In this document: in pieces, positions 4,669 to 55,888 of the stretch
Position numbering within the stretch: the first letter of the stretch is position 1
Layout: each line of letters starts with the position of its first letter
Assembly (NCBI GenBank): GCA_964518865.1
Contig: CAZFIB010000003.1
Span: 10,520 to 74,519, forward strand
DNA: 64,000 nucleotides
Direction: 5' to 3'
Source: an uncultured Thermodesulfobacteriota bacterium
GTDB taxonomy: Bacteria; Desulfobacterota; WTBG01; CAIYCZ01; CAIRTM01
Translations under genes and position numbers: made by a program
The notes under the pieces: model-generated
Seen by the model: only the letters and a program-made list of their open reading frames with translations
Told to the model about the DNA's origin: nothing
Database searches by the model: none

Positions 4669-6075
4669 TTAGTCGCTTTTCTGACTGTGGGCTGGATGAT
4701 ATTTCTTGATATGCTCCTCATCGATGCGCTTCAGATCGCTTTCATCGAGAATGTCGAGAAGCTTCCATCCCAGGTCGAGCGTCCCCTCGGTAATCGAGCG
4801 ATTCTCGTCCCTGCCCTGAATAACAAACTCTTTTTCAAACGCTTCGGCGAATTCCAGAAATTTTTTATCGCGCTCGGTCAGCGCCTCCTCACCGACGACC
4901 GCCACCAGGTTGCGCACATCCCGCCCCTCTGCATACGCGGCATAACACTGGTCCGAAACGCCCGAGTGATCTTCACGCGTGTTGCCCTCACCGATGCCCT
5001 GGTTCATGAGGCGCGACAGGCTCGGCAAAACATCAACCGGGGGATAAATGCCACGGCGGTGCAGGTCGCGGGACAGCACGAACTGACCCTCGGTAATGTA
5101 TCCGGTCAAATCGGGAATCGGATGGGTAATATCGTCATCGGGCATTGAAAGTATCGGCACCTGGGTTATGGATCCCTTCCTGCCCCTGATCCGTCCGGCC
5201 CGCTCGTAGCTCATGGCGAGGTCGGTATACATATAGCCGGGATAGCCGCGACGGCCCGGCACCTCTTCGCGGGCGGCGGCGATTTCCCGGAGCGCCTCAC
5301 AGTAGTTCGTCATGTCGGTCAGGATTACAAGCACGTGCATATCACACTCGAACGCCAGAAACTCCGCCGTTGTCAGCGCCATGCGCGGGGTGATTATGCG
5401 CTCGATTGCCGGGTCATCGGCGAGGTTGATGAAGGCCACGATCTGCTCCATGGCGCCGGTGCGCTCGAAATCGCGCATAAAGAAGTTGGCCTCCTCGCTG
5501 GTGATGCCCATCGCTGCAAAAACGACTGAAAACGGCTCGGTGGAGCTCAGCACCTTGGCCTGGCGGGCAATCTGAGCCGCAAGCTCATTGTGCGGCATGC
5601 CGGCGCCTGAGAAAATCGGCAGCTTCTGACCGCGGACGAGCGTGTTCATACCGTCGATCGTGGAAATGCCCGTCTGAATGAATTCGTTGGGAAACGCGCG
5701 CGCCGTCGGATTAATCGAAGCGCCGTTGATGTCGAGTCTCGTGTCGGATATGATTTCAGGGCCGTCGTCGATCGGCCGCCCCAGTCCGTCGAAAAACCTA
5801 CCGACCATGTCACGGGAAACGGCAAGCTTCATGGTATCGCCGATGAACCTGACGCTGGTGTCGCTGGTATCGATGCCCGCGGTTCCCTCGAAGACCTGAA
5901 CGACGGCAATACCTTCGCGGGATTCAAGCACCTGCCCGGTGCGGTCTTCTCCGGAACCGGTCCTGATTTTGACGACTTCCCCGAAGGCCACTCCCTCGAC
6001 TCCCTCGACAACCATCAGGGGTCCGGCAACTTCCTTGACGGTTTTGTATTCCCGGATTTTTATGTCGGAACTCAT
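4669..6075 (-). CDS. atpB: V/A-type ATP synthase subunit B
   Basis: 468 aa with full-length similarity to the regulatory B subunit. The 4-nt overlap with atpA shows coupling. Confidence 0.95.
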
Positions 6076-7841
6076 TCTGCCTCTCCTAATGAAGTAAATT
6101 GTTCTTCCATTCTGCTCATCAGCTGCGCGTGCTCATCGGCAAACGTCGTGTTGTCGATATATTTCATGCGGGAAATTTCATCCCTGATCGGAAGCTTGCC
6201 GATAGCGTCGATTCCCCTGCCCCGCTCGAGCGCCTGTTCGGCAAGGTCGCTGAACCTCATAATGGTCTGCATCATTTTGGACTGCTTTTCGAGCGGGCAG
6301 TAGGTATCCATCTTGTGAAATGCGTGCTGCTGCAAAAAGTCCTCTCTGACCATGCGCGCTACCTCGAGGGTAAGGCGCTCGCGCTCGGGCAGGGCGTCGG
6401 GTCCGATAAGCTGAACGACTTCGGCCAGCTCGGACTCCTCCTGCAGAATAACCATCGCCTTGGTGCGCAGCTGCCTGAATTCCGGTGACAGGTTTTCATC
6501 ATACCAGGCCTTGGTAAAATCAAGATACAGCGAGTAGCTTCGCAGCCAGTTGATGGCCGGAAAGTGGCGGCGGTCGGCAAGCGTGGAATCAAGCGCCCAG
6601 AACGAACTGACAACGCGCAGCGTGTTCTGTGACACCGGCTCGGACAGGTCGCCGCCCGGAGGGGAAACAGCACCGATAATTGAAACGGACCCGTAGCGCT
6701 CCTCGGAGGCCATAGTCTGCACACGGCCGGCGCGCTCGTAAAAGCTTGCAAGACGCGTTGCCAAATAGGCGGGGTAGCCCTCCTCGCCGGGCATCTCCTC
6801 GAGTCGCCCGGAAATCTCGCGCAGGGCCTCGGCCCAGCGCGAGGTGGAGTCCGCCATAATCGCCACATCATAACCCATGTCGCGGTAGTACTCGGCGATG
6901 GTCACACCGGTATAAATGGAGGCCTCACGGGCCGCAACCGGCATATTCGATGTGTTGGCGATCAGGGTCGAGCGCTCCATAAGCTTGAACCCTGTTTTGG
7001 GATCGTCGATTTCAGGAAACGTGTCAAGCACCTCGGTCATCTCATTGCCGCGCTCGCCGCAACCCACATAGACAACCAGCTGGGCATCGGCCCAGCGGGC
7101 TACCTGGTGCTGGCTGACGGTTTTGCCGGTGCCGAAACCGCCGGGGATGGCCGCCGTGCCGCCCTTGGCTATCGGGAAAAACGTGTCGTAAATCCGCTGC
7201 CCGGTCAGCAGCGGCACGCTCGGATCGACTTTCTTTTTATTCGGGCGGTTGTTGCGAACAGGCCACTTCTGCTTCATAACCACCGGAATCTCGCTACCGT
7301 CCTTATCAAGCACGGCTATGACGTCATTAACGGTAAACGAGCCCTGCTTGATCTCCTTGACCGTTCCGCTTACGCCGGGCGGGACCATAATCTTGTGCGT
7401 TATGACCTTCGATTCCGGGACCGTACCCAGCACATCGCCGGCGGTCACCTGCGCGCCCTTTTCAATCGTCGGTGTAAACTCCCATTTGGCATCCGGATCG
7501 AGACCGGGGACATTGATGCCGCGCGTGATAAAGTCGCCGGCTTTTTCCTGTATGCGCAGCAGCGGCCGCTGTATGCCGTCGTAAAAATTTTTAATAATGC
7601 CGGGTCCCAGTTCGACGGACAGCGGCTCGCCTGTTCGCATGACCTTTTCACCGGGCTTGAGACCCGAAGTATCCTCGTACACCTGGATGTAGGCTTCATC
7701 GCCGTCGAGCCTGATTGTTTCCCCCATCAGGCCTTCATCGCCGACCCGCACAACTTCGTACATTTCACAGCCCTGCAGCCCTTTTGCAATAACCAGAGGG
7801 CCCGCAATGCTTTTTATGCTTCCATCTTTATACTCGGGCAA
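6072..7841 (-). CDS. atpA: V/A-type ATP synthase catalytic subunit A
   Basis: 589 aa with Walker A 'GGFGTGKTV' and the non-homologous insert region typical of A subunits. Confidence 0.95.
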
Positions 7842-7911
7842 CGTTCGTCCCTCCCTGTAAAAAGTAGTTTATCGTACAACACGACGCTTTATCATATCTC
7901 AAAGCTGTTTT

Positions 7912-8220
7912 CTATTGAATGTCGGCGCCGATTGCCCTGCGAATAAGCTCGCGTATCGGATCCTCTTTGCGCTCAATCGGTCCGGATGTATCCGGTACTT
8001 CCACGATGATCGGCAGCATGCGCTTTGACTCCTTATGGTCGTCGATAAGGCGGCGGTTGTCTTCGGCAAACCGCTCGGTAACGATAACGATGCCGTTCGC
8101 CTCATCGGAAAGAATCTGCTTGAGATCCTGCCGACCCTCATCGTCCCCGTATACTTTTTTGACTCCTGAAAGTCGAAATGACGTCGCAGTGTTCCGGTCG
8201 CCGATAACTACAATATCCAT
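7912..8220 (-). CDS. atpF: V/A-type ATP synthase subunit F
   Basis: 102 aa starting 'MDIVVIGDRNTATSFRLSG', the subunit F signature. Confidence 0.85.
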   Translation of the reverse strand: MDIVVIGDRNTATSFRLSGVKKVYGDDEGRQDLKQILSDEANGIVIVTERFAEDNRRLIDDHKESKRMLPIIVEVPDTSGPIERKEDPIRELIRRAIGADIQ

Positions 8221-8223
8221 GTT

Positions 8224-9345
8224 TTACACCCTCAATACGAATTCCCGTATGCTGTCGGCAGCCAGGCCGGCCTCTTTCGCGCGGGAGATAGCCCGAATGT
8301 TTCTTATTTCCGTCTCTTTAAGCGCCAGGTACCCCAGTATCGGGGCGATGCCGTACGGCTGCTTGACGGCGGTCTGCCGGCCGATCGAAAGCACGGTCTC
8401 GTCGATCGCTTTTTCAAGCGCATACATGGTTTTGTCGCGCTCATACTCGGGAAGCGCATCCATCAGCGGCTTGAAAAAAACCGTGCCGTCGACCTCGGCC
8501 ACAAGCGCCGGGACCTCGTCTACCTCATCAAGAACGTTGAACAGCGAGGCCGGCAAATCCCCGCCGTCGATAAGATAGCGCTCGACATCGCTCAGCACGA
8601 GATGGTCGGACTTGGCACGCAGAAGAATTTTCAGATTGAGGCCGTCGATACGGGCGGCAAAGCTCGGCCGCAGATCGGACAGTTCCCGGTCGGCGGTAAC
8701 GTTTTTCCACATGGATTCAAGCAGGGTCTTGTCAAGCAGCGCCTCCAGCGGCAGCAGGCTGTTCTCCTGCTCATAGACCGAAAGCCTGCCTGCAAGAGGC
8801 TCGTAGCGGGTTCCCTCGAAAACGGGCAGCAGGTCTTCTATGCTGACGGCTTCACACATTTTCTTTAAAACCTCGGCATCGATCTCGCCGAACGGTATGG
8901 CAGCCGCAATGATTTCTTCCGACGGCAGCCCTGCCCGCACGCCGCGCATCACCGTTTTCAGATTGCGAACATCCCACTGCTGCTGCAGATAGCTGAACGC
9001 GCTTGAGACTTTTGCAGGCAGCATCCCGGCTATTTCGCTGTACACGTCGGCGCTTTGCCGCGTCAAAAGTGATTCGATCGACTCGGCGCTTTCGAGCACA
9101 AGCCCCTGCATTGCAGATGCATATTCTGAGTTTTCAAGAATTGATGCGATCTCGGCGACCGACCCCGCATTGATCATATCGTCAACCGTTTCGGGTTTGA
9201 GCAGCCGGGCTTCCTTGGCCCTGACCCTGGCCGTCACATACAGGTACGGCAGGATTGATCGCAGGTTGCGGATCAGAAAAACAAGAAACGGCAGCAGAAA
9301 GCCGAGCAGCAGCAGTAGTATCACAAGAAAAAAGTTTGCATCCAT
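8224..9345 (-). CDS. atpC: V/A-type ATP synthase subunit C (V0 d-like) with N-terminal hydrophobic extension
   Basis: The 'YLYVTARVRAKEARLL' motif matches the subunit C N-terminus. The ATG at 9345 with a GGGAG RBS is the only in-frame start. It adds a ~28-aa hydrophobic segment (FFLVILLLLLGFLLPFLVFLI). Confidence 0.8.
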   Translation of the reverse strand: MDANFFLVILLLLLGFLLPFLVFLIRNLRSILPYLYVTARVRAKEARLLKPETVDDMINAGSVAEIASILENSEYASAMQGLVLESAESIESLLTRQSADVYSEIAGMLPAKVSSAFSYLQQQWDVRNLKTVMRGVRAGLPSEEIIAAAIPFGEIDAEVLKKMCEAVSIEDLLPVFEGTRYEPLAGRLSVYEQENSLLPLEALLDKTLLESMWKNVTADRELSDLRPSFAARIDGLNLKILLRAKSDHLVLSDVERYLIDGGDLPASLFNVLDEVDEVPALVAEVDGTVFFKPLMDALPEYERDKTMYALEKAIDETVLSIGRQTAVKQPYGIAPILGYLALKETEIRNIRAISRAKEAGLAADSIREFVLRV

Positions 9346-9348
9346 CTG

Positions 9349-9999
9349 CTATGACTCCCGGCTGAAGAGCTCTTTGGCGACATGGGTACGTATTTCGTCC
9401 CGAAAACGATCGATACGCGATTCAAACGTATTATCAACCCGCACCGTACCGCTGCTGCTGCGAACGGCGACACCGCCCATGCTGCTCAGCGATTCTTCGG
9501 ATATGCGCAGTCTGATCTGCGTTCCGGTCCGGCCGCCTGCCTGACCGGCAATTCTGTCGAGCAGGTCCTGACCCACAAGCTGCCTGTCGCGCCGGGGTAC
9601 CATCACTTCGAGATCGGTTTCGCCGGAAGAGACAACGGATTCGGAAATAAGCCGCTCCAGCACACCGGCGTAAGAAATACCGTCGGCGCTGCCCTGCTCG
9701 GCCAGGCTGCGGAGCGTATCCATGGCGGTATCAAAGGATTTCTGCACGACAGATTCCTGAGCTCTGACCTTCTCGCGGCGGGCTTTTATGCGGGCTTCCG
9801 CGAGAATGCGCTGTGATTCGCGGCGGGCCTCCTGCCCGGCGCGGGCAAGAATAGCCTGTTTCTTCTGCTCGGCCTGCCTGCGCGCCTCACCAAGACGCGC
9901 ATCGACCTTTTCCTGTGCTTCCGCCATGCCGGCCGATTCAGCTTCCGCGGCGCTTTTTTCAATCTGTTCGATAATCTTCCGGACTCCATCGGTTGCCAT
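9349..9999 (-). CDS. atpE: V/A-type ATP synthase subunit E
   Basis: Start chosen at internal Met55 (MATDGVRKIIEQIEK...), which is preceded by a GAGAGG RBS. The coiled-coil, charged sequence is typical of subunit E. The upstream extension of the ORF has no homology. Confidence 0.8.
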   Translation of the reverse strand: MATDGVRKIIEQIEKSAAEAESAGMAEAQEKVDARLGEARRQAEQKKQAILARAGQEARRESQRILAEARIKARREKVRAQESVVQKSFDTAMDTLRSLAEQGSADGISYAGVLERLISESVVSSGETDLEVMVPRRDRQLVGQDLLDRIAGQAGGRTGTQIRLRISEESLSSMGGVAVRSSSGTVRVDNTFESRIDRFRDEIRTHVAKELFSRES

Positions 10000-10221
10000 A
10001 TGGAACCTCTCAAAAAAAATGAGTTGATAAATATCGTGATCAATACATGCCCAAAAAATACGACTTGACAGCAAAACAGCATGCGGAAACATCTGCTGTC
10101 TGTGAACACACTGCCCGGCCCCCCGTATGCAGGAGGGAGATCCGGCGATCATACCGCACACCCGCTTTTTAAAAGCGGTGCGTTCGCACAGGGCCCGTTC
10201 AGTCGTTCTATTAGTGCGGCA

Positions 10222-10701
10222 TTACATAATGCCGGCGCCGACCATGATCAGAATCGCAATCAGCAGTGCGAATACCGCAAAGGTTTCGGACATGACCGAA
10301 AGAACCATATTCTGGCCCAGCGTTTCAGGCTTTTTGGCTACGGATCCCATGGCGGCCCCGGCCGTCATGCCCTGACCGATCGCGGTCAGGCCGCCCAGTG
10401 CGGAAGCAAGACCTGCACCGAGGCTGATAAGCCCCAGCTCCATGGAAATCGGCTTTATCTCGCCGCCGAGCAGCCCGACGCCCATCAGGATGAGTACGGC
10501 CGTTACGAACCCGTAAATTCCCTGCGTCTGGGGAAACGCCTGCAGGATCAGTACCGGGCCGAATTTTTTAGGGTCTTCGGCTATAACGCCCGCGCCGGCG
10601 GCGCCCGCAATACCGACACCGATTCCGGAACCGATAGCGGCAACGCCCATCGCAAGCCCGGCACCAAGTGCCGCCAGTCCTAAGCCAAGTGTAAATTCCA
10701 T
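10222..10701 (-). CDS. atpK: V/A-type ATP synthase proteolipid subunit K (duplicated 4-TM c subunit)
   Basis: 159 aa, Gly/Ala-rich, two-hairpin proteolipid. It contains TQxxY, Q110 and E139, which align to the E. hirae NtpK Na+ site. Confidence 0.9.
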   Translation of the reverse strand: MEFTLGLGLAALGAGLAMGVAAIGSGIGVGIAGAAGAGVIAEDPKKFGPVLILQAFPQTQGIYGFVTAVLILMGVGLLGGEIKPISMELGLISLGAGLASALGGLTAIGQGMTAGAAMGSVAKKPETLGQNMVLSVMSETFAVFALLIAILIMVGAGIM

Positions 10702-10780
10702 ACCTGTATACCTCCTTACTGCGTTATATGAAATGTATTAATTCTGTTTGCATATCACGAGTCGGCTAAAAAAACCGGCC

Positions 10781-12748
10781 TTACGTTGAAGCCTGTCGTG
10801 CTTCCGTCACTTCCCGCTTGACGCGGAAGGGTTCAAAATCCTCTCCCCCGCCGCTGTAAAACTTGCCGAAAAATTCGACAAAATGAAGGCGGATGCCGTG
10901 GGCAAAAGCCCCCATCAGGTTAAGCACAAAGCTGAACAGATGGCCGCCTGCCAGTATCAGAATCGCCACGATCCAGCCGAAATACGGGATGCCGAACACC
11001 ATCTTTGCGAGCGCGTTGATAGCCACCGCAAGACCGAAGCTCACCAGCCCCAGCGCCATAAGGCGCGCATAGGACAGCGAATCGCCCAGCAGCCCGGTCA
11101 CGCCGAACAGCGCCATGCCTTTTTCGGCATACAGCAGCAGCAGCAGTGCCGGTACCGCGAAAACGATCGCCAGGGTCGATGCCTTGAGATAAAAGCAAAT
11201 CAGGGACAGCTCAAGAAAAAATATCCAGACGTTTTTGAGCGCTTCCGGAATATCGTTCCTGCGCATGTCCTTAATGATACCGACGACGATACCGAGATTG
11301 AGGTGCAGCAGGCCGACGCCGATGGCGAACAGGAGAAAATTGGACACGTCGACCATCGGATTTATAACCACTATTTTGTTCAAAAACGTCATGCCCAGGT
11401 ACTCGGTGGCGAGGTTGCCGAACCACCCCCCCGTCAACGAGCCGAGCACGACTGTGGAGGCTCCGCCAAGGGTCAGCAGCATGCCTGCGCTGCGGTACAG
11501 CGAATAGTATTTGCCGCCGCCGCGCAGGATAAAAACCCCCAGCAGCAGACACATCAGCCCGTACATGGCATCGGTTATCATGAGCCCGAAGAAAAAGAGA
11601 AACGAGGGGAATATGAGCACGGTCGGATCGACCTCGTCATATCGGGGCGGCGCATACAGTTTGACAAGCAGTTCGAAGTGCTTGAGAATGCCCGGGTTGT
11701 CGAGTGCGACCGGCAGTTTTTCCACCGGCTCGTCGGGTTCGGTCGCCTGACCGATTGCAAGCCCGTCACATGCACCCTCAATATCCTGAATCACTTTCTG
11801 CGCATGCTTTGCTGTCACAAAGCCCTCAATGGCAACGACATGCTCTGTGCGAGCGAAGCCGGTATAGGCCTCGGCGCGTTCGCGCTCGATAAGAAGGAGC
11901 TCACGCAGGGCTTTCAGGCGATTGCGGTAGGTTGCAGCGGTTCCCGCAATGAGTTTCCGGCAATGCTGCTGTTTTTCATCGAGGGCGTCGATACGCCTGG
12001 TTATGTCCGCAATGGCGTCGGCGGGTGTCCCCGCGGTGTCGACCGGCTGAATGCGCTCGACATCCCGGCGCCGCAGACAGGCTGCTGCTTCATCCGCATC
12101 ACTGTTCAGGCAAACAAGCAGAATACAGCTTTCAGAATCCGAGACAGCGGTCTCGGCAAAAAACGAGCAGCCGTTGGTAACTTCTTCAATTTCTTCGCGC
12201 AGCGGCCCGAATTCTTTTCCGGGTGCGACCCCGAGCAGTGCGGTGACAAAAGCTCCCTGACCCAGAAGCTCGATGGACACCTGCACTGATTTGATCCGCT
12301 GCAGGGCATCGCGCTGGGCAACGAGGTCCGTTTTTTCGGCCTCGCATTTTTCAAGCAGGGCCAGCTGGTCAGACACTTCCGCCTCAACCGTGGCAACAGC
12401 CGAATCGGTTTCCTTAAACAGGTCCTCTCCCGCAATATCCTCTATTGCTATTTTTTCGGGAGGCGCCGGCGCAAACAGTGTTTTAAAAAAGCCCTCCTCC
12501 TGCTCGGGCGCGACCATGGTAAAAATATCCAGAAGCCGGTTGACGGCCATTATCTGTGTCATTACCCGCCGAACATCGACGGACATGGGGTGTGAGCTCA
12601 GCAGATCGCTCCACTCCTGCGTTGCAAGACGACTGCGAAAGTCGGTAATCTGTACGGCGCCCAGCTCGTGCAGACGCTTGACCGCCTGCTGCTTGACTGA
12701 TTCATGAACGGCAAAGCGGACCCTCTGCATTCTTTCAGGGTAAAACAT
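10781..12748 (-). CDS. atpI: V/A-type ATP synthase subunit I (a subunit)
   Basis: 655 aa with an N-terminal soluble coiled-coil domain and a C-terminal polytopic membrane domain. The start (MFYPERMQRV) is typical. Confidence 0.9.
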   Translation of the reverse strand: MFYPERMQRVRFAVHESVKQQAVKRLHELGAVQITDFRSRLATQEWSDLLSSHPMSVDVRRVMTQIMAVNRLLDIFTMVAPEQEEGFFKTLFAPAPPEKIAIEDIAGEDLFKETDSAVATVEAEVSDQLALLEKCEAEKTDLVAQRDALQRIKSVQVSIELLGQGAFVTALLGVAPGKEFGPLREEIEEVTNGCSFFAETAVSDSESCILLVCLNSDADEAAACLRRRDVERIQPVDTAGTPADAIADITRRIDALDEKQQHCRKLIAGTAATYRNRLKALRELLLIERERAEAYTGFARTEHVVAIEGFVTAKHAQKVIQDIEGACDGLAIGQATEPDEPVEKLPVALDNPGILKHFELLVKLYAPPRYDEVDPTVLIFPSFLFFFGLMITDAMYGLMCLLLGVFILRGGGKYYSLYRSAGMLLTLGGASTVVLGSLTGGWFGNLATEYLGMTFLNKIVVINPMVDVSNFLLFAIGVGLLHLNLGIVVGIIKDMRRNDIPEALKNVWIFFLELSLICFYLKASTLAIVFAVPALLLLLYAEKGMALFGVTGLLGDSLSYARLMALGLVSFGLAVAINALAKMVFGIPYFGWIVAILILAGGHLFSFVLNLMGAFAHGIRLHFVEFFGKFYSGGGEDFEPFRVKREVTEARQAST

Positions 12749-16300: not shown

Positions 16301-17064
16301 CTGATTCCGTCACCCTGACGGTCAGCCGCACGCTTCTGTCGCCGGGCACCTACAGTGCCGAAATCCCGGTCATGTCGAATGCCGGCGATGCCGACATCGA
16401 CGTGGAGATGGAAGTCGCCCGAAGCGAGCTTCCGATCATGTCCGTGCGGCCGCGCCTGCTTCTTTTCCTGCTGGACGATATCGACAACCAGACCATGACC
16501 GTGCGAAACCTTTTTTCAGGAACGCTTCTCTGGGAACTTGAGGACCCGATATATCACCGCGGTGAGGGGTGGCTCTCCTTCACGCCCTCATCGGGCTCTG
16601 TCCGGCGCGAAGCCGACACCGTTACCGTGAGCGTAACGCGGGATGCCATGTCGCCCGGACTGTACAGCGCAACCGTTCCCGTGCGCTCCAACTTCAACCG
16701 CCGGAACATCACGGTCGTCATGCTTGTGCAGGAAGGGCCCGACCTGCAGATCTCGCCGTCGCTTCTGTTTTTCGGCCGCAATGACGAAAATGAAAAAGAG
16801 GTGCTCCTCACGAATACCGGTTCGGGAATTGCGAACTGGACGATTGATTCGGATGCCATCGACTACCGGGGTGGCGACACGCCATGGGTGGTATCGGTAA
16901 GCCCTCTGTCGGGCTCCACCGAAACGCTTGAGGAGGACACCGTTACCGTTACCGTCAGCAGGGACTCTCTCGGTTTCGGCCTGTACCGTGCGATCATTCC
17001 GATAACATCGGCAAACGGCGGCGACAAAAAAATCAACGTGTATTTACTGGTACCGTTTTTGTAA
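13312..17064 (+). CDS. giant secreted surface protein
   Basis: Signal peptide, then two parallel beta-helix modules each ending in an NWWG..DGP motif, then a Thr/Ser-rich linker, then 3x DUF1573/BACON-like Ig domains. Confidence 0.8.
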   Translation: MRCTDSMITQTAGHSSKVIGRLAIMLLLLCPSAHGATLGVQKEGGACDPSGTPYYCTIQSALAAASNGDTVCVYAATSTGAYVEALTLTRQVSLVGKKSDGSDAWSAGLAGSLSGAPILTITDTSSFASQPVVTIGGASGISMQGLTIDSRGYPLTCTAITSTSYVSVTYCDFLMGGDAGTDCAIGVYDNNIPDNITVTFCRFVGQTTGTANWFAVMGGAGISSVTLSCNQITRTSSLLSLGSAGDVRNVLYNRNTFYGTAGAILLSDPLGVSAKDFANIRIIDNEFDATNEYAVVVSSNVGTDDAENGDWRSNLVVNNNAIKTLTSSSYPVVGFVSSTFNITPTYYMDAQLNWWGDLDGPADVSSRVDYSPWIAQAQEYRTGGDPAYWGTNDSITDALAQAGANDTVYVVAKGSPFAESVTVTTSLTLTGRTSAGADAWTTGTAGAASGAPILAITNTSFSNPLMLIRSTANNTTLKGFKINTGGAVAQQISCTTFGGAVSNVDISYCDYALDEGDKAIAVDYGNSISNLTATYNTFTGQNDNISNWFFVGENGSGGAVNNAILSNNSITNAMSTLQLNNSIKKIRYSNNTFNNSWDGGAIATKAGYLLIEEPNDDNPNIIQGITITHNTFNNGNPDTEPNEFGVLIANTVDLNETDWESNLAIHFNNFLQDDDNGGFPIAGFQTGSPDHASEITATKNYWSAAPNVSSNGMVSDNVKYNPWVRSGIDGGSYAVLGANTVDYITDTTNGIYLTVETGAGGATLLPTKYVGNPTSTSLTSAQGYFDLGIKSGTIDKITATFTYSGSDPSISNPAVWYNGSTWVSCSNQSLDASANAVTVYITDTSQITPTMSDVGTIHNITPSTFFALAFSTTTTTAPSTSTSSAAATTTSVTATSTTTSTGGGGGSTTTSTSTVPSTTTSALPDTASTTTIGVPQLSITPASLEFADNESAKQLSIANTGTGTLDWSIDDNATSYAETSGWVFSARPSTGQVMDTPDSVTLTVSRTLLSPGTYSAEIPVMSNAGDADIDVEMEVARSELPIMSVRPRLLLFLLDDIDNQTMTVRNLFSGTLLWELEDPIYHRGEGWLSFTPSSGSVRREADTVTVSVTRDAMSPGLYSATVPVRSNFNRRNITVVMLVQEGPDLQISPSLLFFGRNDENEKEVLLTNTGSGIANWTIDSDAIDYRGGDTPWVVSVSPLSGSTETLEEDTVTVTVSRDSLGFGLYRAIIPITSANGGDKKINVYLLVPFL

Positions 17065-20531: not shown

Positions 20532-23500
20532 TTATCTGAAAAACAGCGGGACAAATATGATGACTGTTATTTCCTCATCACCGCCGTTCGACGTGACCGG
20601 CACAACCGCGCGGTGAAAGCCCGGCCGCAGGCTGCTTCGGTCGACACTGATCGTAATGGTTTCTTCACTCTCTTCACCGCTGACGGTACCGCTGTCTGAA
20701 TTGAAGCTTATCCAGTCGCTGCCGCGCCAGCCGTACTGAATGTCGCCGATACTCCACTCCAGAATACCGGTTCCCGCATTCTGAACTGCACACTGCGTTT
20801 CCGACACATTGCGGCGCATAAAGCAGAACGTCCGGCCGAGAGAAAGACGTGGCTCGCCCGTCGGAGGAGGTGCAGGTTCTTCCTCCTGGACGGTCAGAGT
20901 AACAGTTATATCCTTGCTGTCGGAGCCGTCTCGAAGTGCAAGTGTTATAATGGCATTGTATGTGCCCTGGTCCAAACCCTGACGGTCGACCGACACGGTC
21001 ATATCCATGCTGTCGCCCGGAGCAAGAGAGATGATGTTGGCATCCGTGCTGAGCCAGCCGCTGACGTCCGCGTACAGCGTTTCAACATACCAGGTCCCGT
21101 CCGCATCGCCCCGGTTCGTAACCGTAACCGTGGATTGCTCCTGCATCTCGAATGACGTGAATTCAAGGCTGCCTGAGCTGATCTCTACAGCCGGAGCAAG
21201 CGGAACATAGACATCACCCACACCAAGGCGCACGAGAACCGAGTCGGAGCCGCCGCTGGATGTTATGGGGAGATAGGCCTCGTAAATTCCCTCGCTCAAA
21301 CCGTCCCGGTTTACGTAGATGGTGACAATCTGCGTACCGGTACCGCTCGGGGGCTGAATCGACTCGATCCACCCGCTGCCGTCGAGGTACTGGGGGGTCC
21401 CGATGCTCCAGGTGAGGGTGCCGCCGCCGCTGTTGCCGATGGCGATAAAGCGGTCGTCGACGTCTTCAGGGAATCCGATATAGCCGTCCACATCTAGTAC
21501 CGGCGTCGTTGTGGAGCCGCCGCCTCCGCCGGTAGTGCCGCCACCGGTAGTGCCGGAATCGTCGTCATCGCCCGACGATGATCCTTCCATTGCGCCGGCA
21601 CCGAAGTAGGTTCCGCCGAGCTGTTCGATGGACGGGCTGCTGCTGTCTGTAATGACAACCTGCAGACAGTTGCCGACGCTTATTGCTGCCGGGTCGGTCG
21701 GTTTCCATTCGCCGGTATCACCGTTGAACCACATGACCGTATCGCCGCCGCTGCCGCAGATTTCGATTGTTATACTTGTCAACCCGTCAGGATCGGGGAC
21801 AAAAATATCGACATACTTTGCACCGGCCTTCAGCCCGCTGGACTTCCCGGTCGGTGTGCCGCTGTAGCTTGCAGCCATTATTTTGGCCGATCCCTCTACT
21901 TCAAGATTGACACCCGGCACCACGTCCGAGGCGCTGCTGCCGTTCATTTCCATCATGACAACCGAGCCTTCAAACGGACTTTCAAGGTGAGGAGAGAAGC
22001 AAACCAGGCCGCTGACGGATGCACCGCTGCCGGCAGCGGTTTTTCCCGCCGTGCAGTTGTCGGCCGTGTCGCCCGACGGACCGTCCTCAGCACCCCACCA
22101 GTTGTTGCGGGCATCCACGTGCTCGGTTCCGCTGTGCTCCAACCCAACCGGAACTGCAGGTTTGCATATATCCTCATTCTGGTCAGGATTGTACGTAGAC
22201 GGGCAGTTGTCGTCGTCATCCGCTATGCCGTCGCAGTCGGTATCATCAAGCGTAACCGTCTCTTCCTCGGGTGTTGACGGTATTGTTACGTTGCAGTTGC
22301 TGCCGCATGCATCGCCGATTCCGTCATCATCTGAATCCCGCTGATCGGGATTATAAACGTAAGGACAATTGTCATCACATGCTTCTGTCTCACCCTCCGC
22401 ACAGGCAACATCGCCGACGATACCGTTTTGGTCGCCGTCATCCGCTATGCCGTCGCAGTCGGTATCATCAAGCGTAACCGTCTCTTCCTCGGGTGTTGAC
22501 GGTATTGTCACTGTGCAGTTCTCCTGCACACCACCCTCCCCCGGAGTAAACTTGATGTTGTTGAAACTGATCTGCGTACCGTTGACATCATCGACGACAA
22601 AAGCTTTTTGATAGGTGCCGCTATCCATATCAATGGTCAGGCCGAGGATGGTGGCATTTTCCGCACGTATAGAAATCGCGGTGCTGTTCTCTGCAGGCAC
22701 ACCGTTTATAACCGGTGCAGCACCTTCGGCTGCCTTTATCGTCAGATTGGCAACATCAATCGCAAAACCGTCATAATCGCCGGTTTGAAGCTCAATAACC
22801 TTTTCTTCTTCGGGCGGAAGGGCGGCAAAAGCCGTAATGACATCGTTGATAGTTGCATACCCTGATCCGCCGCCCCCTGGACTGAAAAGAATGCTGTTGC
22901 TGTCATCACAGGTATCGCCGCGACCATCCTGGTCCGCATCATTTTGATCTTCGTTGTCCGTGTACGGACAGTTATCGCAGGCATCACCACGAGTGTCACC
23001 GTCACTGTTTGCCTGATCGCCATTTGCAATATCCGGACAGTTGTCACACGCATCACCGATAGTGTCATTATCAAAATCCAACTGATCGGCATTCGCGGTA
23101 TTCGGGCAATTGTCGCAGGCATCACCTACATCGTCACCGTCAAAGTCGGCCTGGGATGTATTGTTATCATACTGGCAGTTGTCGCACGCATCACCGATAG
23201 TGTCATTATCGAAATCCAACTGATCGGCATTCGCGGTATTCGGGCAATTGTCTTCTCCATCCTCAATACCGTCATTATCATCATCATCGTCACAGATATC
23301 GCCGATACCGTCGCCGTCGCTGTCACCGATATCGGGTGCAAATGAAGTAAATGCGGCGTCTTTGGCATAGGGATAAAAGCTCAGATTGGCGCTGACGCCC
23401 ATGACGGCAAGTTCACCGCCGGACCCGTCAGCAGCAGGGGTGCAGCCCAGAAAAGATTCGGAATTGTTAATTCCTCCTGACGGTCCGTCATCGGCTCCCC

Positions 23501-24254
23501 ACCAGTTATACCGCATATCTATGGCAGGCGGATTGTTTGTTGACAAATACTGCCCGAAAGCATGTCCCGCGTAATCAGGATTTCCTTCCCAGGCACTGCT
23601 GTTGTCGTTACCGCTCAAATCATTATATTGTATGAACAATTTCGGGACGTTACCGTAGACCCCGATCCCGCGGTGGTTGCCGGTAATACTGTTTTTCATA
23701 GAAATGTCGCCACCAATAAATATCCAGGACGAACTGGACCCGTTAATAAAAATACCGTAACCGTAGTCCGGGTGTTTGGTAGCATTATCTGGCGCAAAGC
23801 CGGCTATGGTATTATTTCTAATTGCAATGGAAGACCCGGAGTTGATAAAAATGCCGCAATCAGAACCGGTAATGGTAAAACCTTGGAGTGTTGTTAGACT
23901 TCCGGGAGGAGTCTGAATAAATACTGATGCGTATATATCAAGTATGTCAAGTGGAGAAATACCTGACTCGGGGGAAATCTGCTCTCCTTCGATAACCGGT
24001 GCAGCCCCGTCTGCAGCCTTGATGGTCAATCCCTGTTTCCAGATGATAAAACCGTCATAACTGCCGTCAGCCACCTCGATGGTAGAACCGGGGGCCGACA
24101 GATTTATCGCACTTTGAATGTCTAAAAAGTCGGCTGCACCTGTGGCGTTATCGTCATCCACCAGCAACGTGGCGGATTGCGCATTAGCATTAGAAATACA
24201 GACTGCATATGCCAGTAGTGCTATGAATAAACCGTGCATCCATGAAACTTTCAT
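20532..24254 (-). CDS. giant secreted Ca-binding surface protein
   Basis: Signal peptide (…ISNANAQS), then beta-helix modules with NWWG..DGPS motifs, then ~10 TSP3 repeats (DxDxDGxGDxCDNCPxxxNxDQ), then a Gly/Ser/Thr linker, then 3x DUF1573/BACON-like domains. Confidence 0.85.
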   Translation of the reverse strand: MKVSWMHGLFIALLAYAVCISNANAQSATLLVDDDNATGAADFLDIQSAINLSAPGSTIEVADGSYDGFIIWKQGLTIKAADGAAPVIEGEQISPESGISPLDILDIYASVFIQTPPGSLTTLQGFTITGSDCGIFINSGSSIAIRNNTIAGFAPDNATKHPDYGYGIFINGSSSSWIFIGGDISMKNSITGNHRGIGVYGNVPKLFIQYNDLSGNDNSSAWEGNPDYAGHAFGQYLSTNNPPAIDMRYNWWGADDGPSGGINNSESFLGCTPAADGSGGELAVMGVSANLSFYPYAKDAAFTSFAPDIGDSDGDGIGDICDDDDDNDGIEDGEDNCPNTANADQLDFDNDTIGDACDNCQYDNNTSQADFDGDDVGDACDNCPNTANADQLDFDNDTIGDACDNCPDIANGDQANSDGDTRGDACDNCPYTDNEDQNDADQDGRGDTCDDSNSILFSPGGGGSGYATINDVITAFAALPPEEEKVIELQTGDYDGFAIDVANLTIKAAEGAAPVINGVPAENSTAISIRAENATILGLTIDMDSGTYQKAFVVDDVNGTQISFNNIKFTPGEGGVQENCTVTIPSTPEEETVTLDDTDCDGIADDGDQNGIVGDVACAEGETEACDDNCPYVYNPDQRDSDDDGIGDACGSNCNVTIPSTPEEETVTLDDTDCDGIADDDDNCPSTYNPDQNEDICKPAVPVGLEHSGTEHVDARNNWWGAEDGPSGDTADNCTAGKTAAGSGASVSGLVCFSPHLESPFEGSVVMMEMNGSSASDVVPGVNLEVEGSAKIMAASYSGTPTGKSSGLKAGAKYVDIFVPDPDGLTSITIEICGSGGDTVMWFNGDTGEWKPTDPAAISVGNCLQVVITDSSSPSIEQLGGTYFGAGAMEGSSSGDDDDSGTTGGGTTGGGGGSTTTPVLDVDGYIGFPEDVDDRFIAIGNSGGGTLTWSIGTPQYLDGSGWIESIQPPSGTGTQIVTIYVNRDGLSEGIYEAYLPITSSGGSDSVLVRLGVGDVYVPLAPAVEISSGSLEFTSFEMQEQSTVTVTNRGDADGTWYVETLYADVSGWLSTDANIISLAPGDSMDMTVSVDRQGLDQGTYNAIITLALRDGSDSKDITVTLTVQEEEPAPPPTGEPRLSLGRTFCFMRRNVSETQCAVQNAGTGILEWSIGDIQYGWRGSDWISFNSDSGTVSGEESEETITISVDRSSLRPGFHRAVVPVTSNGGDEEITVIIFVPLFFR
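22211..22508 (-). repeat. intragenic near-identical ~78-bp direct repeats (2 copies, ~220 bp apart)
   Basis: The same 78-nt string (…gtcatccgctatgccgtcgcagtcggtatcatcaagcgtaaccgtctcttcctcgggtgttgacggtattgt) occurs at ~22211 and ~22431. It encodes NVTIPSTPEEETVTLDDTDCDGIADD twice. Confidence 0.85.
23043..23251 (-). repeat. intragenic near-identical ~72-bp direct repeats in TSP3 region (2 copies, ~137 bp apart)
   Basis: 70/72 identical copies at ~23043 and ~23180. They encode DNCPNTANADQLDFDNDTIGDACDNC. Confidence 0.85.
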
Positions 24255-52405: not shown

Positions 52406-53408
52406 GAGTATCTGCACACTCTGCCTGCAGATAATGCCGCAGCATATCTGAGGCCTCCCGCAGCCCGCTGAGCATTTCGTGTGCGGCAGCACCCCACATG
52501 ATTGAGGCATGCCCCAGCCCTTTGAGCTGCAGATATCTGACAGGTACTCCGGCATCCTCAAGACGCACGGCATAGGCCCTGCCCTCGTCACGCAGCACAT
52601 CCCTCTCCCCGGTGATGATCAGTGCCGGCGGCATACCGTTGAGATCATCGGCCAGCAGGGGCGATACCAGCGGATTGAAACGATCCGCAGGACGGGTAAG
52701 ATAACAGGACCGGAACAATATCATCTGCGATTTCAGCAGACCCGGCGGCTCTGAGAATCGCCGGTAGGAGTCCGTGTCGAAAGAGGCCAGATTGAGGGCG
52801 GGAAACACCAGGAGCTGAAAACGCGGTAACGGGCCGTCTCTCTTTTTTGCAAGCAGACACACTGCGGCAGCCAGATTGCCGCCGGCGCTCGATCCCCCCA
52901 CGCCGATCCGTTTTGTATCGCCACCGATGGTATCGGCATAGCGGTCGCACCATGAAAGAACCGCGTAGACATCCTCAAGCGCAGCAGGAAACCTGTGCTC
53001 AGGAGCCAGGCGATACGCTACGGATAAAACAATACATTTGCTGTCCGTTGCCAGAAAACGGCATGCCGGATCATGGGCCGCAATGCTTCCCGCTATCCAG
53101 CCGCCGCCATGCAGGTATATCAATACCGGATGAACACGGGTATCGCTGAACAACGGCCGGTACAGCCTGACATTGACCGGCCCATCGGGTCCGGGAATAG
53201 TTTCTTCTAAAATACTGCCGCTGAATACAATGGATTGACGGTGCTTTTCAGCCTGCTGCTGTAAAGCGGCACGTATCAGATCGGTACGCGTATGAACGGA
53301 GCACGCTGAAGCATGCACTACAATTAGTGTAATTAAAATTTTTTTTCCGGCAAAAAACACATTCCTCATATCTGTCTCCCTGCCGCTGAATGGATCGTCA
53401 GACAACAA
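52299..53408 (-). CDS. alpha/beta-hydrolase fold-3 esterase/lipase (HSL family), secreted
   Basis: Oxyanion 'HGGGW' and the nucleophile elbow 'GGSSAGG'. There is an N-terminal signal peptide. Confidence 0.8.
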   Translation of the reverse strand: MLSDDPFSGRETDMRNVFFAGKKILITLIVVHASACSVHTRTDLIRAALQQQAEKHRQSIVFSGSILEETIPGPDGPVNVRLYRPLFSDTRVHPVLIYLHGGGWIAGSIAAHDPACRFLATDSKCIVLSVAYRLAPEHRFPAALEDVYAVLSWCDRYADTIGGDTKRIGVGGSSAGGNLAAAVCLLAKKRDGPLPRFQLLVFPALNLASFDTDSYRRFSEPPGLLKSQMILFRSCYLTRPADRFNPLVSPLLADDLNGMPPALIITGERDVLRDEGRAYAVRLEDAGVPVRYLQLKGLGHASIMWGAAAHEMLSGLREASDMLRHYLQAECADTLTNQAAGARERIRGPARIPESPAEAGRFCRQVRFQ

Positions 53409-53713
53409 TTAAGATATATTTAAGAAGCACCAAAGGCATCTCTCTGCTTTGTTTTGGCATACTGGACAGCATGGAAACAAAGTAATGTGTAAAAAAGTTT
53501 TAACCTCTTTCTCAACTCTAATGATCCAACAGTCTAAAAGCAATTACCTTTTCTGATTGGCCACTGTTTTTCCCCGCTGCGGAATCGGTTTTATTAATTT
53601 ACTTTTATTATAATAAATCTATAAAACAGGTCTTTTAGAATGGTCTATAATTAAATATATTTTTAGATTTTTACAACAAGCACAAATTTTTTTAATAAAT
53701 GTGCATTTTTTTC

Positions 53714-53743
53714 TTGACATATTTTTTTCAAAACATTAATAAT
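53714..53743 (+). promoter_or_regulatory. candidate sigma70 promoter TTGACA-N17-TAATAA
   Basis: Read in the AT-rich leader, ~65 nt upstream of the ATG at 53806. Confidence 0.4.
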
Positions 53744-53757
53744 GATTATCAAATTCT

Positions 53758-53793
53758 ATATGTGGTGTGTTAATTATCGGTTAACCACAATAT
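53758..53793 (+). promoter_or_regulatory. inverted repeat (ATATGTGGT-N17-ACCACAATAT) between promoter and RBS; embeds GGTTAACC palindrome
   Basis: Operator-like dyad overlapping the probable TSS. The half-sites resemble NrdR-box halves (aCACaATAT) only partially. Confidence 0.3.
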
Positions 53794-53805
53794 CAGGGGG
53801 GAGTC

Positions 53806-54120
53806 ATGACACGAAATGAATTAAGCAGTTACCTGGAAAGCAACCAAAACATTGAGTGGTTTGACAGCCCGGAAGAACAGCAGATGCACTTCAGAAACAT
53901 GCTGCTTGACTGGTATAGAAAAGATGAAAGCCGGTCAACAGCGGTAAAGTACTGGAAACTGGACAACATTACCCCGGAAGAACTGGAACGTGAAATCAAC
54001 AGAGGCTTGATGGTGGAAGGCATCACCCGCATTACCGGCTATTTTACCAAGGTCCCCGGCTGGAATCCCGGAAAACGTGCTGAGCTTCGTGACCGCAGAA
54101 AATTTTCGCTCAGCGCATAG
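53806..54120 (+). CDS. small glycyl-radical-domain-like protein resembling the NrdD C-terminus
   Basis: GGGGGAG RBS. 'RITGYFTKVPGWNPGKRAELRDR' has the same spacing and residues as the class III RNR C-terminal 'R-x-C-G-Y-x6-W-N-x-G-K-x2-E-x3-R' region. It has no Zn-ribbon cysteines. GC is lower than the genome average. Confidence 0.45.
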   Translation: MTRNELSSYLESNQNIEWFDSPEEQQMHFRNMLLDWYRKDESRSTAVKYWKLDNITPEELEREINRGLMVEGITRITGYFTKVPGWNPGKRAELRDRRKFSLSA

Positions 54121-54427
54121 TTCTGAAAAATTTGTACTCTAAAAAAGCAGTGCATGATTAAATTGTTACTGCTTTTTTTATTTAAAGACACTGCTCGATT
54201 TTCGGGCTGCCTGGCTGAATGCTGCCGGTGACGATAGCAAATAAATCACAGCAACCAGCATTATCAACAGGCAGTCAACAATAGTCGTTGCATGACCATT
54301 ATACTGAATATATTGTGGTATCAGACGTTGCACACACAAGATATCAACAGTAAAGAGCATTTCCAATCGTATGCCTGCTGCATTCATTCAGCGGTATAAA
54401 ATACATCCTGGCATACGGAAATTTTCA

Positions 54428-54730
54428 TTAAGCCCTGAGTGTAAGAATTTTGGCTGATGCCGTGCCGGGGGTAAGCTGGGATGAGTTGAAAGAGTTGCTG
54501 TAGGGTTCTATCTCCAGAAAACTCGAGAGAAGTTCGCTGTTTTTTTTCCATACGGATTCATCCTCATGAAGCCAGTCCGGAAAAATCCCGCTGGCGACAT
54601 ACCATTTGACCCTGTGCCGTCTGCAGATAAACCAATGGTCTCTCCCGATATTCAGGTATCCGCTGGTCCGGCCGCATTTGGGACAAACACCGAAATGAGC
54701 AGACTTTCTTAATTTTATTACTTTTTTCAT
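54428..54730 (-). CDS. small CxxC zinc-ribbon-like protein
   Basis: 100 aa with 'VCPKCGRTSGYLN…HWFICRRH'. No family is recognised. Confidence 0.35.
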   Translation of the reverse strand: MKKVIKLRKSAHFGVCPKCGRTSGYLNIGRDHWFICRRHRVKWYVASGIFPDWLHEDESVWKKNSELLSSFLEIEPYSNSFNSSQLTPGTASAKILTLRA

Positions 54731-54858
54731 TAAAACACCTTATTGCACTAAAATCATCTATGAACAATATATAGTGGTTTGCCATTTTCCTGCTCTATAT
54801 ATTGTATATTTTCGACACCCGAAAGAACAACTTGAACGTTTTTTTGCCTTTACGGTAA

Positions 54859-55254
54859 TTACATCCACCTGATCCTGATGAGGATATATCCCGGCACAGT
54901 TCCGATACATGCTGCAATAAAATTTATCAGCATATCCATATTTGAACACTGTCTGTAGGGTATTCGCAGCTGCAGAAACTCGACTAGTATTCCATATGCT
55001 GCGGCCAGCAGCACAGCGAAAAAACAGGGATGGGTAATACGTCGATCATGCAGATAAAAAACCAGCATGAATGAAAAAAGTGCATAGGCACCGATATGTG
55101 CTGAAAACCCCGAATTCAGCCCGTCATCCCGGGCCGGAATAATCGAAAAAAACAGTATAAGTGCTGCCAGCACAAAAACAGCACCCGCGTAGGCATCATA
55201 CTGCCTGGCGATTGAATCGATTTTTACAAATATTTTTTTAAGCGTGTTCTGCAC
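54859..55254 (-). CDS. VanZ-like family membrane protein
   Basis: 131 aa, 4 TM, with 'ILVEFLQLRIPYRQCSNMDMLINFIAACIG' matching the VanZ motif (E..Q…R…D…N). Confidence 0.55.
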   Translation of the reverse strand: MQNTLKKIFVKIDSIARQYDAYAGAVFVLAALILFFSIIPARDDGLNSGFSAHIGAYALFSFMLVFYLHDRRITHPCFFAVLLAAAYGILVEFLQLRIPYRQCSNMDMLINFIAACIGTVPGYILIRIRWM

Positions 55255-55342
55255 AGGCTTATCGTGCCTCGCCTAAATTTTATTCTTTGACCTAAAGACA
55301 GGTTTATGATTTAACCTACCATATATCCGTGTATATGGTTGC

Positions 55343-55888
55343 ATGAAAAAACCGATGTGTAAAAACAAGCCAGAAAAGCTTCTCTTTTTCCTTGCAGTGC
55401 TGCTCTCGACAGCATCGGCCCATGCCGGAAATGAAACCGTCAAGTTTCATTATCCCGACGGAACGCTCCAGGCCGAATATCGGCTCAAAAACCGGGTGAT
55501 CGACGGTGTCAGCAAAAAATATTATAAAAAGGGTACGCTGCAGTCAGAAGAGTTGTACAAAAACGGAACACTTGACGGTGTCTGCAGGTATTATTACCGG
55601 AACGGAAAGCTGAAAAAACAGGAGACGTATGTCGAGGGCTCGCGCCACGGTACCAGCAGGCTCTACCATAAAAACGGCTCTTTGAAAGCGAAGTTCGAAT
55701 TCATCCACGGAAAAATAAACGGAATCGGCAACGTCTATGCCCCTGACGGAACACTGCTTGCTGAAGGAATATATAAAAACGGCAGGCGCCACGGCGAGAC
55801 GCGGCTCTATAATCCGGATGGAACGCTGCGAAGCATTGATACGTACCGTGACGGTGTGAGAATCAAACGCACACCGGCTGAGAAGTGA
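55343..55888 (+). CDS. secreted MORN-variant repeat protein (YwqK-like)
   Basis: Signal peptide plus ~6 tandem 'Y..NG.L…G' repeats. Confidence 0.6.
   Translation: MKKPMCKNKPEKLLFFLAVLLSTASAHAGNETVKFHYPDGTLQAEYRLKNRVIDGVSKKYYKKGTLQSEELYKNGTLDGVCRYYYRNGKLKKQETYVEGSRHGTSRLYHKNGSLKAKFEFIHGKINGIGNVYAPDGTLLAEGIYKNGRRHGETRLYNPDGTLRSIDTYRDGVRIKRTPAEK

Follow-up and report, generated by a model that had tools for sequence, protein, structure and literature searches.

The stretch of DNA considered here, hereafter the window, comprises 64,000 nucleotides from an uncultured Thermodesulfobacteriota bacterium (assembly GCA_964518865.1, contig CAZFIB010000003.1, positions 10,520 to 74,519 of the forward strand). 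Within it, an islet at 53409-55888 has a GC content of 42%, against 53.6% for the window; a low GC at this place had been claimed in an earlier reading of the same sequence (the original prediction). The islet contains a small gene encoding a protein of 104 amino acids (aa) whose C-terminus is a near-exact copy of the glycyl-radical loop and tail of NrdD, the class III ribonucleotide reductase (RNR). In what follows, L-numbers designate comparison loci bearing the small gene or nrdD, and P-numbers designate proteins found by search. The small gene and its signals are arranged as follows:

53714-53743, plus strand: sigma-70-type promoter of the small gene, TTGACA and AATAAT separated by an 18-nt spacer, with 11 of 12 consensus matches.
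53737-53751, no strand assigned: Fur/PerR-type 7-1-7 palindrome, TAATAATGATTATCA, a candidate PerR operator that overlaps the -10 hexamer.
53753-53768, no strand assigned: predicted NrdR box 1, ATTCTATATGTGGTGT.
53785-53800, no strand assigned: predicted NrdR box 2, CCACAATATCAGGGGG, separated from box 1 by a 16-bp spacer and overlapping the ribosome-binding site (RBS).
53796-53803, plus strand: strong RBS of the small gene, GGGGGGAG.
53806-54120, plus strand: open reading frame (ORF) of the small gene, 104 aa, MTRNELSSYLESNQNIEWFDSPEEQQMHFRNMLLDWYRKDESRSTAVKYWKLDNITPEELEREINRGLMVEGITRITGYFTKVPGWNPGKRAELRDRRKFSLSA.
53806-54003, plus strand: codons 1-66, a family-specific N-terminal alpha/beta domain (N-domain).
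54004-54120, plus strand: codons 67-104 and the stop codon, the NrdD-derived glycyl-radical loop and C-terminal tail, with the codon of Gly78, the predicted radical glycine, at 54037-54039.
54141-54186, plus strand: terminator-like hairpin between A and U tracts; its RNA fold has a stem of 14 bp and, 3' of this, a U run.

The gene has its own promoter, as originally predicted, and the TTGACA -35 element is found at the same place in L010, L013, L014-L017 and L019. The position of the hairpin 3' of the gene is kept in L013; the z-score of the whole 83-nt hairpin stretch is weak (-1.0). An Rfam search returned no RNA elements, including no B12 riboswitch, an element that has been reported 5' of nrdDG in delta-proteobacteria. 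As for the base composition, the drop in GC derives mostly from the intergenic DNA of the islet (29-38% GC), the coding parts having 44-49% GC. The original prediction took this composition as a sign of horizontal acquisition, a view set aside as unsupported. A recent acquisition finds no support because the GC content at third codon positions of the small gene (0.57) matches that of its neighbours (0.52-0.58), and because the block formed by the small gene, the convergent gene orf100, a vanZ-like gene and the gene of a MORN-repeat lipoprotein is syntenic in L013, a related Thermodesulfobacteriota metagenome-assembled genome (MAG).

The motif that first drew attention to the protein, R75-I-T-G78-Y-FTKVPG-W-N-P-G-K-R-A-E-L-R-D-R, is found exactly as quoted, and NrdD is matched at its extreme C-terminus by the final ~37 residues of the small protein (…RGLMVEGITRITG78YFTKVPGWNPGKRAELRDR…). 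The Pfam model NRDD (PF13597) matches with 29.8 bits (gathering score 26.2) and places residues 70-100 on positions 533-562 of the 562 of the profile. The same stretch is matched by the NrdD model TIGR02487 with an E-value of 2.9e-6, at 26.1 bits against a cut-off of 326. When a profile of 46 family members was compared with the PDB, the sole significant match was the NrdD of Prevotella copri (8p23, residues 706-736, E 9.6e-5), the aligned stretch being that around Gly711. In this enzyme, residues 676-739 constitute the glycyl-radical domain, with a structural Zn site, a loop that carries Gly711 and is buried, and a tail on the surface (PMC11226230). A broader comparison set was obtained by scanning one genome per species, which yielded ~70 NrdD reading frames from Thermodesulfobacteriota, Synergistaceae and relatives, the majority being full-length (~700 aa). 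Aligned by hhalign with 40 full-length NrdDs, the family gives a probability of 99.4% and an E-value of 4.5e-21. The full-length NrdDs of the set end in ...C..CGS..VEGITRITGYFTKVSSWNKGKRGELRDRYRN, and the tail of the small protein is nearly identical to the ...VEGITRITGYFTKVSSWNKGKRGELRDR... of NrdDs from the same phylum. The relationship to NrdD proposed originally has therefore held, since the profile matches reach significance and the motif can be aligned with that of genuine NrdD sequences.

The copied region is sharply delimited. Compared with the C-terminal domain of NrdD (P. copri 676-739, PDB 8p23), the radical-glycine loop and the tail align residue by residue, including the C-terminal R-[IV]-x-G-Y followed by the W-N-x-G-K-x-x-E tail (here R75-I-T-G78-Y...W86-N-P-G-K-R-A-E93). 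Whereas NrdD opens this domain with a four-Cys structural Zn site (CxxC...CxxC) placed before the glycine loop, the translation of the small gene is free of cysteine and hence lacks the Zn ribbon, as had been noticed, and the segment ...RGL---C--CGS--VEG... of NrdD is cut down to ...RGLMVEG.... Also missing from the small protein are the ten-stranded barrel core with its catalytic Cys loop (~550 residues) and the ATP-cone. Residues 1-66, aligned by hhalign with the same 40 NrdDs, give a probability of 0.2%, and the N-terminal part of the alignment between full-length family members and NrdD, which is of low confidence, is therefore not to be taken as homology. The 104-aa protein is a two-part fusion, consisting of a private folded domain of 66 residues and a near-exact copy of the NrdD loop and tail devoid of the Zn ribbon.

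The N-domain, for which no recognisable relative was detected, is predicted by AlphaFold2 (AF2) as a confidently folded alpha/beta domain. A hidden Markov model of the N-domain alone was searched against 1.84 billion cluster representatives (clusters at 50% identity) and found 36 proteins, 33 of them small (70-151 aa) and the remaining three being low-scoring partial matches in large proteins (553-1918 aa). Among 28 small N-domain proteins that were read, 26 have a tail of the form R[IV]TGY...N.GK..E..DR, the other two being apparently truncated. The only convincing occurrences of the N-domain in this search are joined to an NrdD-type loop. The close homologues number 53, nearly all of 102-105 aa, and 13 positions are invariant in 46 sequences: T74, R75, I76, T77, G78, Y79, F80, N87, G89, K90, E93, L94 and R97. 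With synonymous sites saturated, the ratio of non-synonymous to synonymous divergence (pN/pS) is 0.26-0.47, non-synonymous divergence being about one third of the synonymous one in both halves of the gene. This small-protein family is conserved and under purifying selection. Its members are called in the databases either 'hypothetical protein' or, by automatic naming, 'anaerobic ribonucleoside-triphosphate reductase', and no model dedicated to the family exists in Pfam, NCBIfam or PHROG. Three distant members (P0059, P0060 and P0078) are extended at the C-terminus by a segment whose last residues are ...CNSACP[IV]A.., a small conserved Cys motif absent from the protein of the window.

Two MAGs contain the small gene together with an intact, full-length NrdD. 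CAIRTM01 has the small gene at L016 and at L047 an NrdD of 835 aa (495 bits to NRDD), whose gene is followed by that of a radical-SAM activase, and CALJBY01 has the small gene at L017 and at L034 an NrdD of 706 aa (ATP-cone plus NRDD). Both NrdDs keep an intact ...GITRITGYFTK... loop of their own, and within a genome the two loops are near-identical (in CALJBY01, ITRITGYFTKVSQWNKGKRGELKDR in the small protein of L017 vs ITRITGYFTKVSSWNKGKRGELNDR in the NrdD of L034). This coexistence bears on the explanation according to which the gene would be an nrdD remnant, either a pseudogene fragment produced by a deletion or one half of a split NrdD, the C-terminal one, with a large subunit devoid of the radical loop. 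Some members are indeed auto-named after NrdD, and only the last ~37 residues match this enzyme. Since the two MAGs hold a complete NrdD, the small gene is not a split gene there, and a remnant would hardly have its own strong promoter, RBS and terminator, homologues of uniform length, and a conserved 66-residue N-domain unrelated to NrdD. We therefore consider such an origin extremely improbable, the intact NrdDs, the conserved N-domain family and the purifying selection having ruled it out as a candidate. A different situation is found in L081, where at 9509-10105 only a 174-aa frame is open 5' of a C-terminus of NrdD type, Zn ribbon included; this is probably a frameshifted or misassembled nrdD and not a second kind of short protein.

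The coexistence of a small loop-bearing protein with its parent enzyme brings to mind the spare parts of other glycyl-radical enzymes. In NrdD, the site of scission is Gly681 in the E. coli enzyme and Gly580 in that of phage T4. Oxygen attacks the glycyl radical and severs the backbone at the glycine that bears it, both in NrdD and in pyruvate formate-lyase (PFL) (PMC12288474). GrcA, also known as YfiD, repairs PFL by providing a fresh, separately activated radical loop; according to a review of June 2026, such spare parts are known for formate lyases only, the matter being undetermined for other glycyl-radical enzymes (PMC13450708). Our literature search found no paper describing a spare part of the NrdD type. 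GrcA (E. coli, 127 aa) and the 104-aa protein are both small, stand-alone proteins in which the C-terminal part copies the radical loop from a large enzyme sensitive to oxygen. Both types coexist with the intact parent, have a stress-linked setting (judged for the small gene from its neighbours and candidate operator) and possess an extra N-terminal region outside the copied loop (PMC13450708). In CAIRTM01 and CALJBY01, as is asked of a spare part, the small protein duplicates the loop of a full-length enzyme of the same genome. The two proteins differ in their parent, which is PflB for GrcA and NrdD for the small protein; in their N-terminus, disordered in GrcA (PMC13450708) and predicted as a folded alpha/beta domain in the small protein; in the copied piece, which is shorter in the small protein, at ~37 residues, and omits the Zn ribbon of the parent; and in the NrdR and PerR-like control predicted for the small gene. 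No match to PF01228 (Gly_radical) was found in Pfam at E<=1, nor any match to the GrcA model in NCBIfam, so the small protein has an independent origin and is an analogue, not a homologue, of GrcA. By analogy, the reading that we favour with moderate confidence is that the small gene would encode an autonomous glycyl-radical cofactor for class III RNR, a counterpart of GrcA/YfiD arisen independently from NrdD.

The regulatory signals of the gene point in the same direction. NrdR, which is reported to be RNR-specific (PMC9110341), binds two partially palindromic 16-bp boxes located 15-16 bp apart, spacers of 14-17 bp being also bound in vitro (PMC12051234). A position weight matrix (PWM) was trained on the boxes 5' of the nrdD genes of the comparison loci and used to scan the window. 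Box 1 of the small gene is the joint top match of the 64 kb and is conserved in the L013 orthologue, while box 2 has a good left half and a G-rich right half, as happens at many genuine nrdD box-2 sites (e.g. ATACTACATATGGGGG). The pair, with 20.1 bits, sits between the -10 element and the start codon. The three best single matches of the window (53753, 54762 and 54792) all lie in the islet. In the 1.3 Mb formed by the window and the loci, 55 tandem pairs reach at least 15 bits, and all are in loci bearing nrdD or the small gene. The great majority, 46, are no more than ~560 bp upstream of an nrdD start (as called in the analysis), and six are upstream of small genes, namely those of the window and of L001, L014, L019, L091 and L095 (19.6-29.8 bits in these five loci). 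One more pair precedes the orf100 homologue of L013, and two are without an assigned target, in L028 (8.5 kb downstream of nrdD) and in L081 (1.9 kb 5' of the short frame that was called in this locus). The L028 pair (16523-16569, 36.8 bits) may serve another RNR operon. Weaker pairs of ~12 bits precede the small genes of L013, L015 and L016.

As in the NrdR regulon (nrdAB, nrdHIEF, nrdDG and nrdJ), the boxes of the small gene are tandem 16-bp elements that obey the spacing rule and overlap the stretch between transcription start and RBS, and they fit a PWM derived from nrdD promoters of the same phylum. The site is also conserved at orthologous promoters, and the small gene is accordingly a predicted member of the regulon. 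The difference concerns the target, which in the NrdR regulon is an RNR subunit or activase and here is a 104-aa loop mimic; the islet moreover has orf100 as a second gene and a third site without an assigned target, both described below. These boxes also account for the dyad operator that had been proposed for this promoter. The sequences TGTGGT..GTTAA and TTAAC.CACA are the facing inner halves of the two boxes, so that the element corresponds to a predicted tandem NrdR site, next to which lies the Fur/PerR-type box; a search for ungapped inverted repeats of at least 8 nt at the promoter found none.

The Fur/PerR-type box TAATAATGATTATCA is the best match of the window to the PerR-box consensus of B. 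subtilis, TTATAATNATTATAA, with 2 mismatches, the consensus being that of Bacillus. In L002, L005, L011 and L093, where a perR-like gene precedes the small gene, the promoter of this perR-like gene has a palindrome of the TAGTAATAnATACTA type immediately 3' of its -35 element, and the orthologous promoter of L013 has a similar palindrome, with the left arm AATAGTAATA in common with the promoter of the window. A PerR-like regulator gene adjoins the small gene in six other lineages. A Fur-family gene of 138-139 aa is directly upstream of the small gene and co-directional with it in L002-L005 and L093 (Pfam FUR), and a Fur-family gene is divergent from it in L017 and L019. The best NCBIfam matches of the upstream gene in L002-L005 are PerR models (E 1e-29 to 1e-31; two scanned), the assignment in L093 being by Pfam only; in L011 and L012 this upstream gene was seen as sequence only, L012 being identical to L005 over the 200 bp read. 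In delta-proteobacteria, PerR regulons have been described as variable and local, the operators covering the -10 element (PMC545781), and a dual control by NrdR and a Fur-family regulator is known at nrdHIEF of E. coli (PMC12051234). From these sites and neighbours we infer PerR as the regulator of the small gene, a Fur-type iron response being the alternative.

Stress genes are also found around the small gene, which in L001 lies among the genes of rubrerythrin, AhpC, MsrAB and HSP20, and in L094 between those of a hybrid-cluster protein (Hcp) and rubrerythrin. Upstream of the pair formed by the perR-like and the small gene, several lineages have a conserved trio encoding a large protein with a Thioredox_DsbH domain, a protein of 134-139 aa without family match and an NMO/FabK-like flavoprotein (L002 5506-9299; L001 3963-7418; L005 192-1570).

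The GrcA/YfiD-like arrangement that the original prediction had seen is supported by the NrdR boxes, the stress-gene neighbours and the coexistence with NrdD, as well as by the phage copies described below, the function as a spare part being argued by analogy. Most of these observations would also fit a regulator, decoy or protector, that is, a mimic of the NrdD loop that binds NrdG, the activase of NrdD, or the barrel of NrdD and, under oxidative stress, competes with NrdD for activation or acts as a sacrificial radical sink. NrdD would then stay in an oxygen-stable, non-radical form and be spared irreversible cleavage. Loop identity with NrdD, NrdR and PerR-type control and stress-gene neighbours fit either function; a folded N-domain of its own suits a protein-binding regulator, the N-terminus of GrcA being disordered (PMC13450708), and the loss of the Zn ribbon could give a poor radical acceptor that still binds. 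The conservation is nonetheless stricter than a simple competitor needs, since Gly78 is invariant together with the tail residues N87, G89, K90, E93, L94 and R97, which pack into the barrel and surface of NrdD. In addition, phages in need of deoxyribonucleoside triphosphates (dNTPs) would gain little from an inhibitor of NrdD, and derepression by NrdR comes when dNTP synthesis should rise, not fall. For these reasons, we consider a decoy or protector unlikely, with perhaps one chance in a handful of being the right explanation.

The remaining contexts of the gene are diverse. In four loci, a long ORF follows the small gene on the same strand, ~100 bp downstream (L014 10405-12843; L015 and L016 10412-12844; L095 3732-6146). 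This ORF is priA, encoding the replication-restart helicase, in L014, L016 and L095, and the ORF of L015, of 810 aa, is a candidate priA. With NrdR boxes upstream of the small gene, this arrangement suggests that the small gene and priA form an operon. The family is also carried by phages: nine IMG/VR contigs encode full-length members, and at least five phage contigs carry the small gene. In L007/L008, it lies beside the genes of DnaB, Rep_O, terminase and a P22 portal protein, and in L097, L100, L103 and L105 beside portal, terminase or tail-spike genes. A precedent is reportedly given by Y06I of phage T4, a phage homologue of GrcA with a PFL-type loop (Wagner et al. 2001). Y06I is a phage-borne spare part of host type, and the family described here is likewise phage-borne; contrary to Y06I, the phage copies have an NrdD-type loop, and their N-domain is the same as in the bacterial members.

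Such variety of contexts (priA, P5CR, phage replication modules) could be expected of a radical-bearing subunit that serves some other partner, either a barrel enzyme lacking a radical domain of its own or a full-length NrdD that was never activated. A private N-domain could target another protein, and GrcA itself was reported to restore inactive full-length PflB in vivo (Kammel & Sawers 2022, as cited in PMC13450708). However, the loop and tail follow the NrdD of the host almost residue for residue (L017 vs L034), NrdR is reported to be RNR-specific (PMC9110341), and, apart from the PerR-like regulator, no conserved partner gene is seen beside the small gene. Another partner thus appears quite improbable.

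Returning to the spare part for NrdD, the observations can be assembled into a mechanism. Upon dNTP scarcity, NrdR would leave the promoter of the small gene, and upon exposure to oxidants the PerR-like repressor would leave it as well, so that the small protein would be made. NrdG would then abstract the hydrogen from Gly78, since the loop that it recognises is the same as in NrdD. An NrdD molecule cut by oxygen would have lost its glycine loop and tail, and the loop of the small protein would enter the barrel beside the catalytic cysteine, bringing ribonucleotide reduction back without the need to remake the 80-kDa enzyme. The N-domain would probably take charge of docking or activase recognition, a job that the Zn ribbon does in cis. 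The phage copies would presumably keep the dNTP supply of the host going in oxygen-stressed anaerobes. In its full extent, the proposal is that of the first spare part for a glycyl-radical enzyme beyond PFL, controlled by NrdR and PerR and used by strict anaerobes and their phages to restart ribonucleotide reduction after an oxygen cut, with the N-domain in the role of the Zn ribbon; we give it slightly better than even chances.

Several points weigh against this proposal. According to Logan et al. 2003, the Zn ribbon is reportedly needed for glycyl-radical formation in the NrdD of T4, and NrdG may therefore reject the small protein, which has none, unless the N-domain compensates. The docking role of the N-domain is itself a guess, because this domain is without recognisable relative, and the installation of the radical and the rescue of the enzyme are argued by analogy. 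The confidence of the AF2 model is low for the radical loop (predicted local distance difference test, pLDDT, ~48-59), which would be expected of a loop that folds only inside the barrel, yet is of no help to the proposal. Scanning ten large ORFs of the window (446-1250 aa) revealed a V-type ATPase, Mrp/Nuo-type antiporter subunits and an O-antigen ligase, among others, and neither nrdD, nrdG nor any other RNR gene. Regarding the control of the gene, 5 of 17 loci are without NrdR boxes, these being absent at loci of the perR-operon type, at L010, at L094 and at the phage locus L007; the PerR models score below their equivalog cut-offs, and the palindromes are AT-rich within AT-rich DNA.

Besides the small gene, the islet contains the convergent gene orf100 and two further sites of the NrdR type:

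54303-54349, no strand assigned: third tandem NrdR-like site, between the convergent genes, ACTGAATATATTGTGG, a 15-bp spacer and ACACAAGATATCAACA; the fourth-best PWM match in the window.
54428-54730, minus strand: orf100, encoding a small CPxC...CxxH protein of 100 aa; the second predicted NrdR-regulated gene of the islet.
54762-54807, no strand assigned: tandem NrdR boxes upstream of orf100, GAACAATATATAGTGG, a 14-bp spacer and GCTCTATATATTGTAT; the second and third PWM matches, with 29 bits for the pair.

Only two homologues of orf100 were found, one in L013 (57% identity, at the syntenic locus) and P0055 (from a search of 5.8 billion proteins). The conserved pattern is CPxC-x15-CR[RK]H and pN is 0.35 against a pS of 0.76, orf100 being a real but very rare gene. 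The protein has no match in Pfam, NCBIfam or PHROG, and its AF2 model, with a pLDDT of 56, is too poor for a fold search. The stretch CPKCGRTSGYL, which the original prediction had found curious, is present in this protein; however, the R-T-S that precedes G-Y is not conserved, the homologues reading QNNGY and GNDGY, and orf100 was rejected as a second glycyl-radical-like protein, having no conserved motif of this kind. The orf100 homologue of L013 (4175-4498, minus strand) is likewise preceded by tandem boxes (4532-4579, 40.8 bits, 16-bp spacer), and the presence of these boxes 5' of the gene in both genomes makes orf100 a predicted new member of the NrdR regulon. The third site is also conserved in L013 (~4108-4154), with the same spacing, in DNA that does not otherwise align and in which no ORF is kept. 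This site may act as a roadblock, or may be the promoter of a small RNA or peptide that has escaped annotation. Judging from its sites, the islet would thus be a small cluster of predicted NrdR-controlled genes.

Elsewhere in the window, and unrelated to the small gene, a V/A-type ATPase is encoded at 6072-12748 (A subunit 6072-7841, I subunit 10781-12748), a protein of 1240 aa with thrombospondin type-3 repeat and BACON domains at 20532-24254, and Mrp/Nuo-type antiporter subunits at 31391-34791.

The family described here is a concrete and testable candidate for a spare part of class III RNR, on which many strict anaerobes depend for all of their DNA precursors. If the proposal is true, the replacement of a damaged part would be a recurrent and convergent answer to the oxygen damage of radical enzymes, and it would explain how sulfate reducers and their relatives recover DNA synthesis after transient exposure to oxygen. 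The phages of anaerobes would gain a new auxiliary metabolic gene, and enzymologists a minimal NrdG substrate of 12 kDa without the Zn ribbon.

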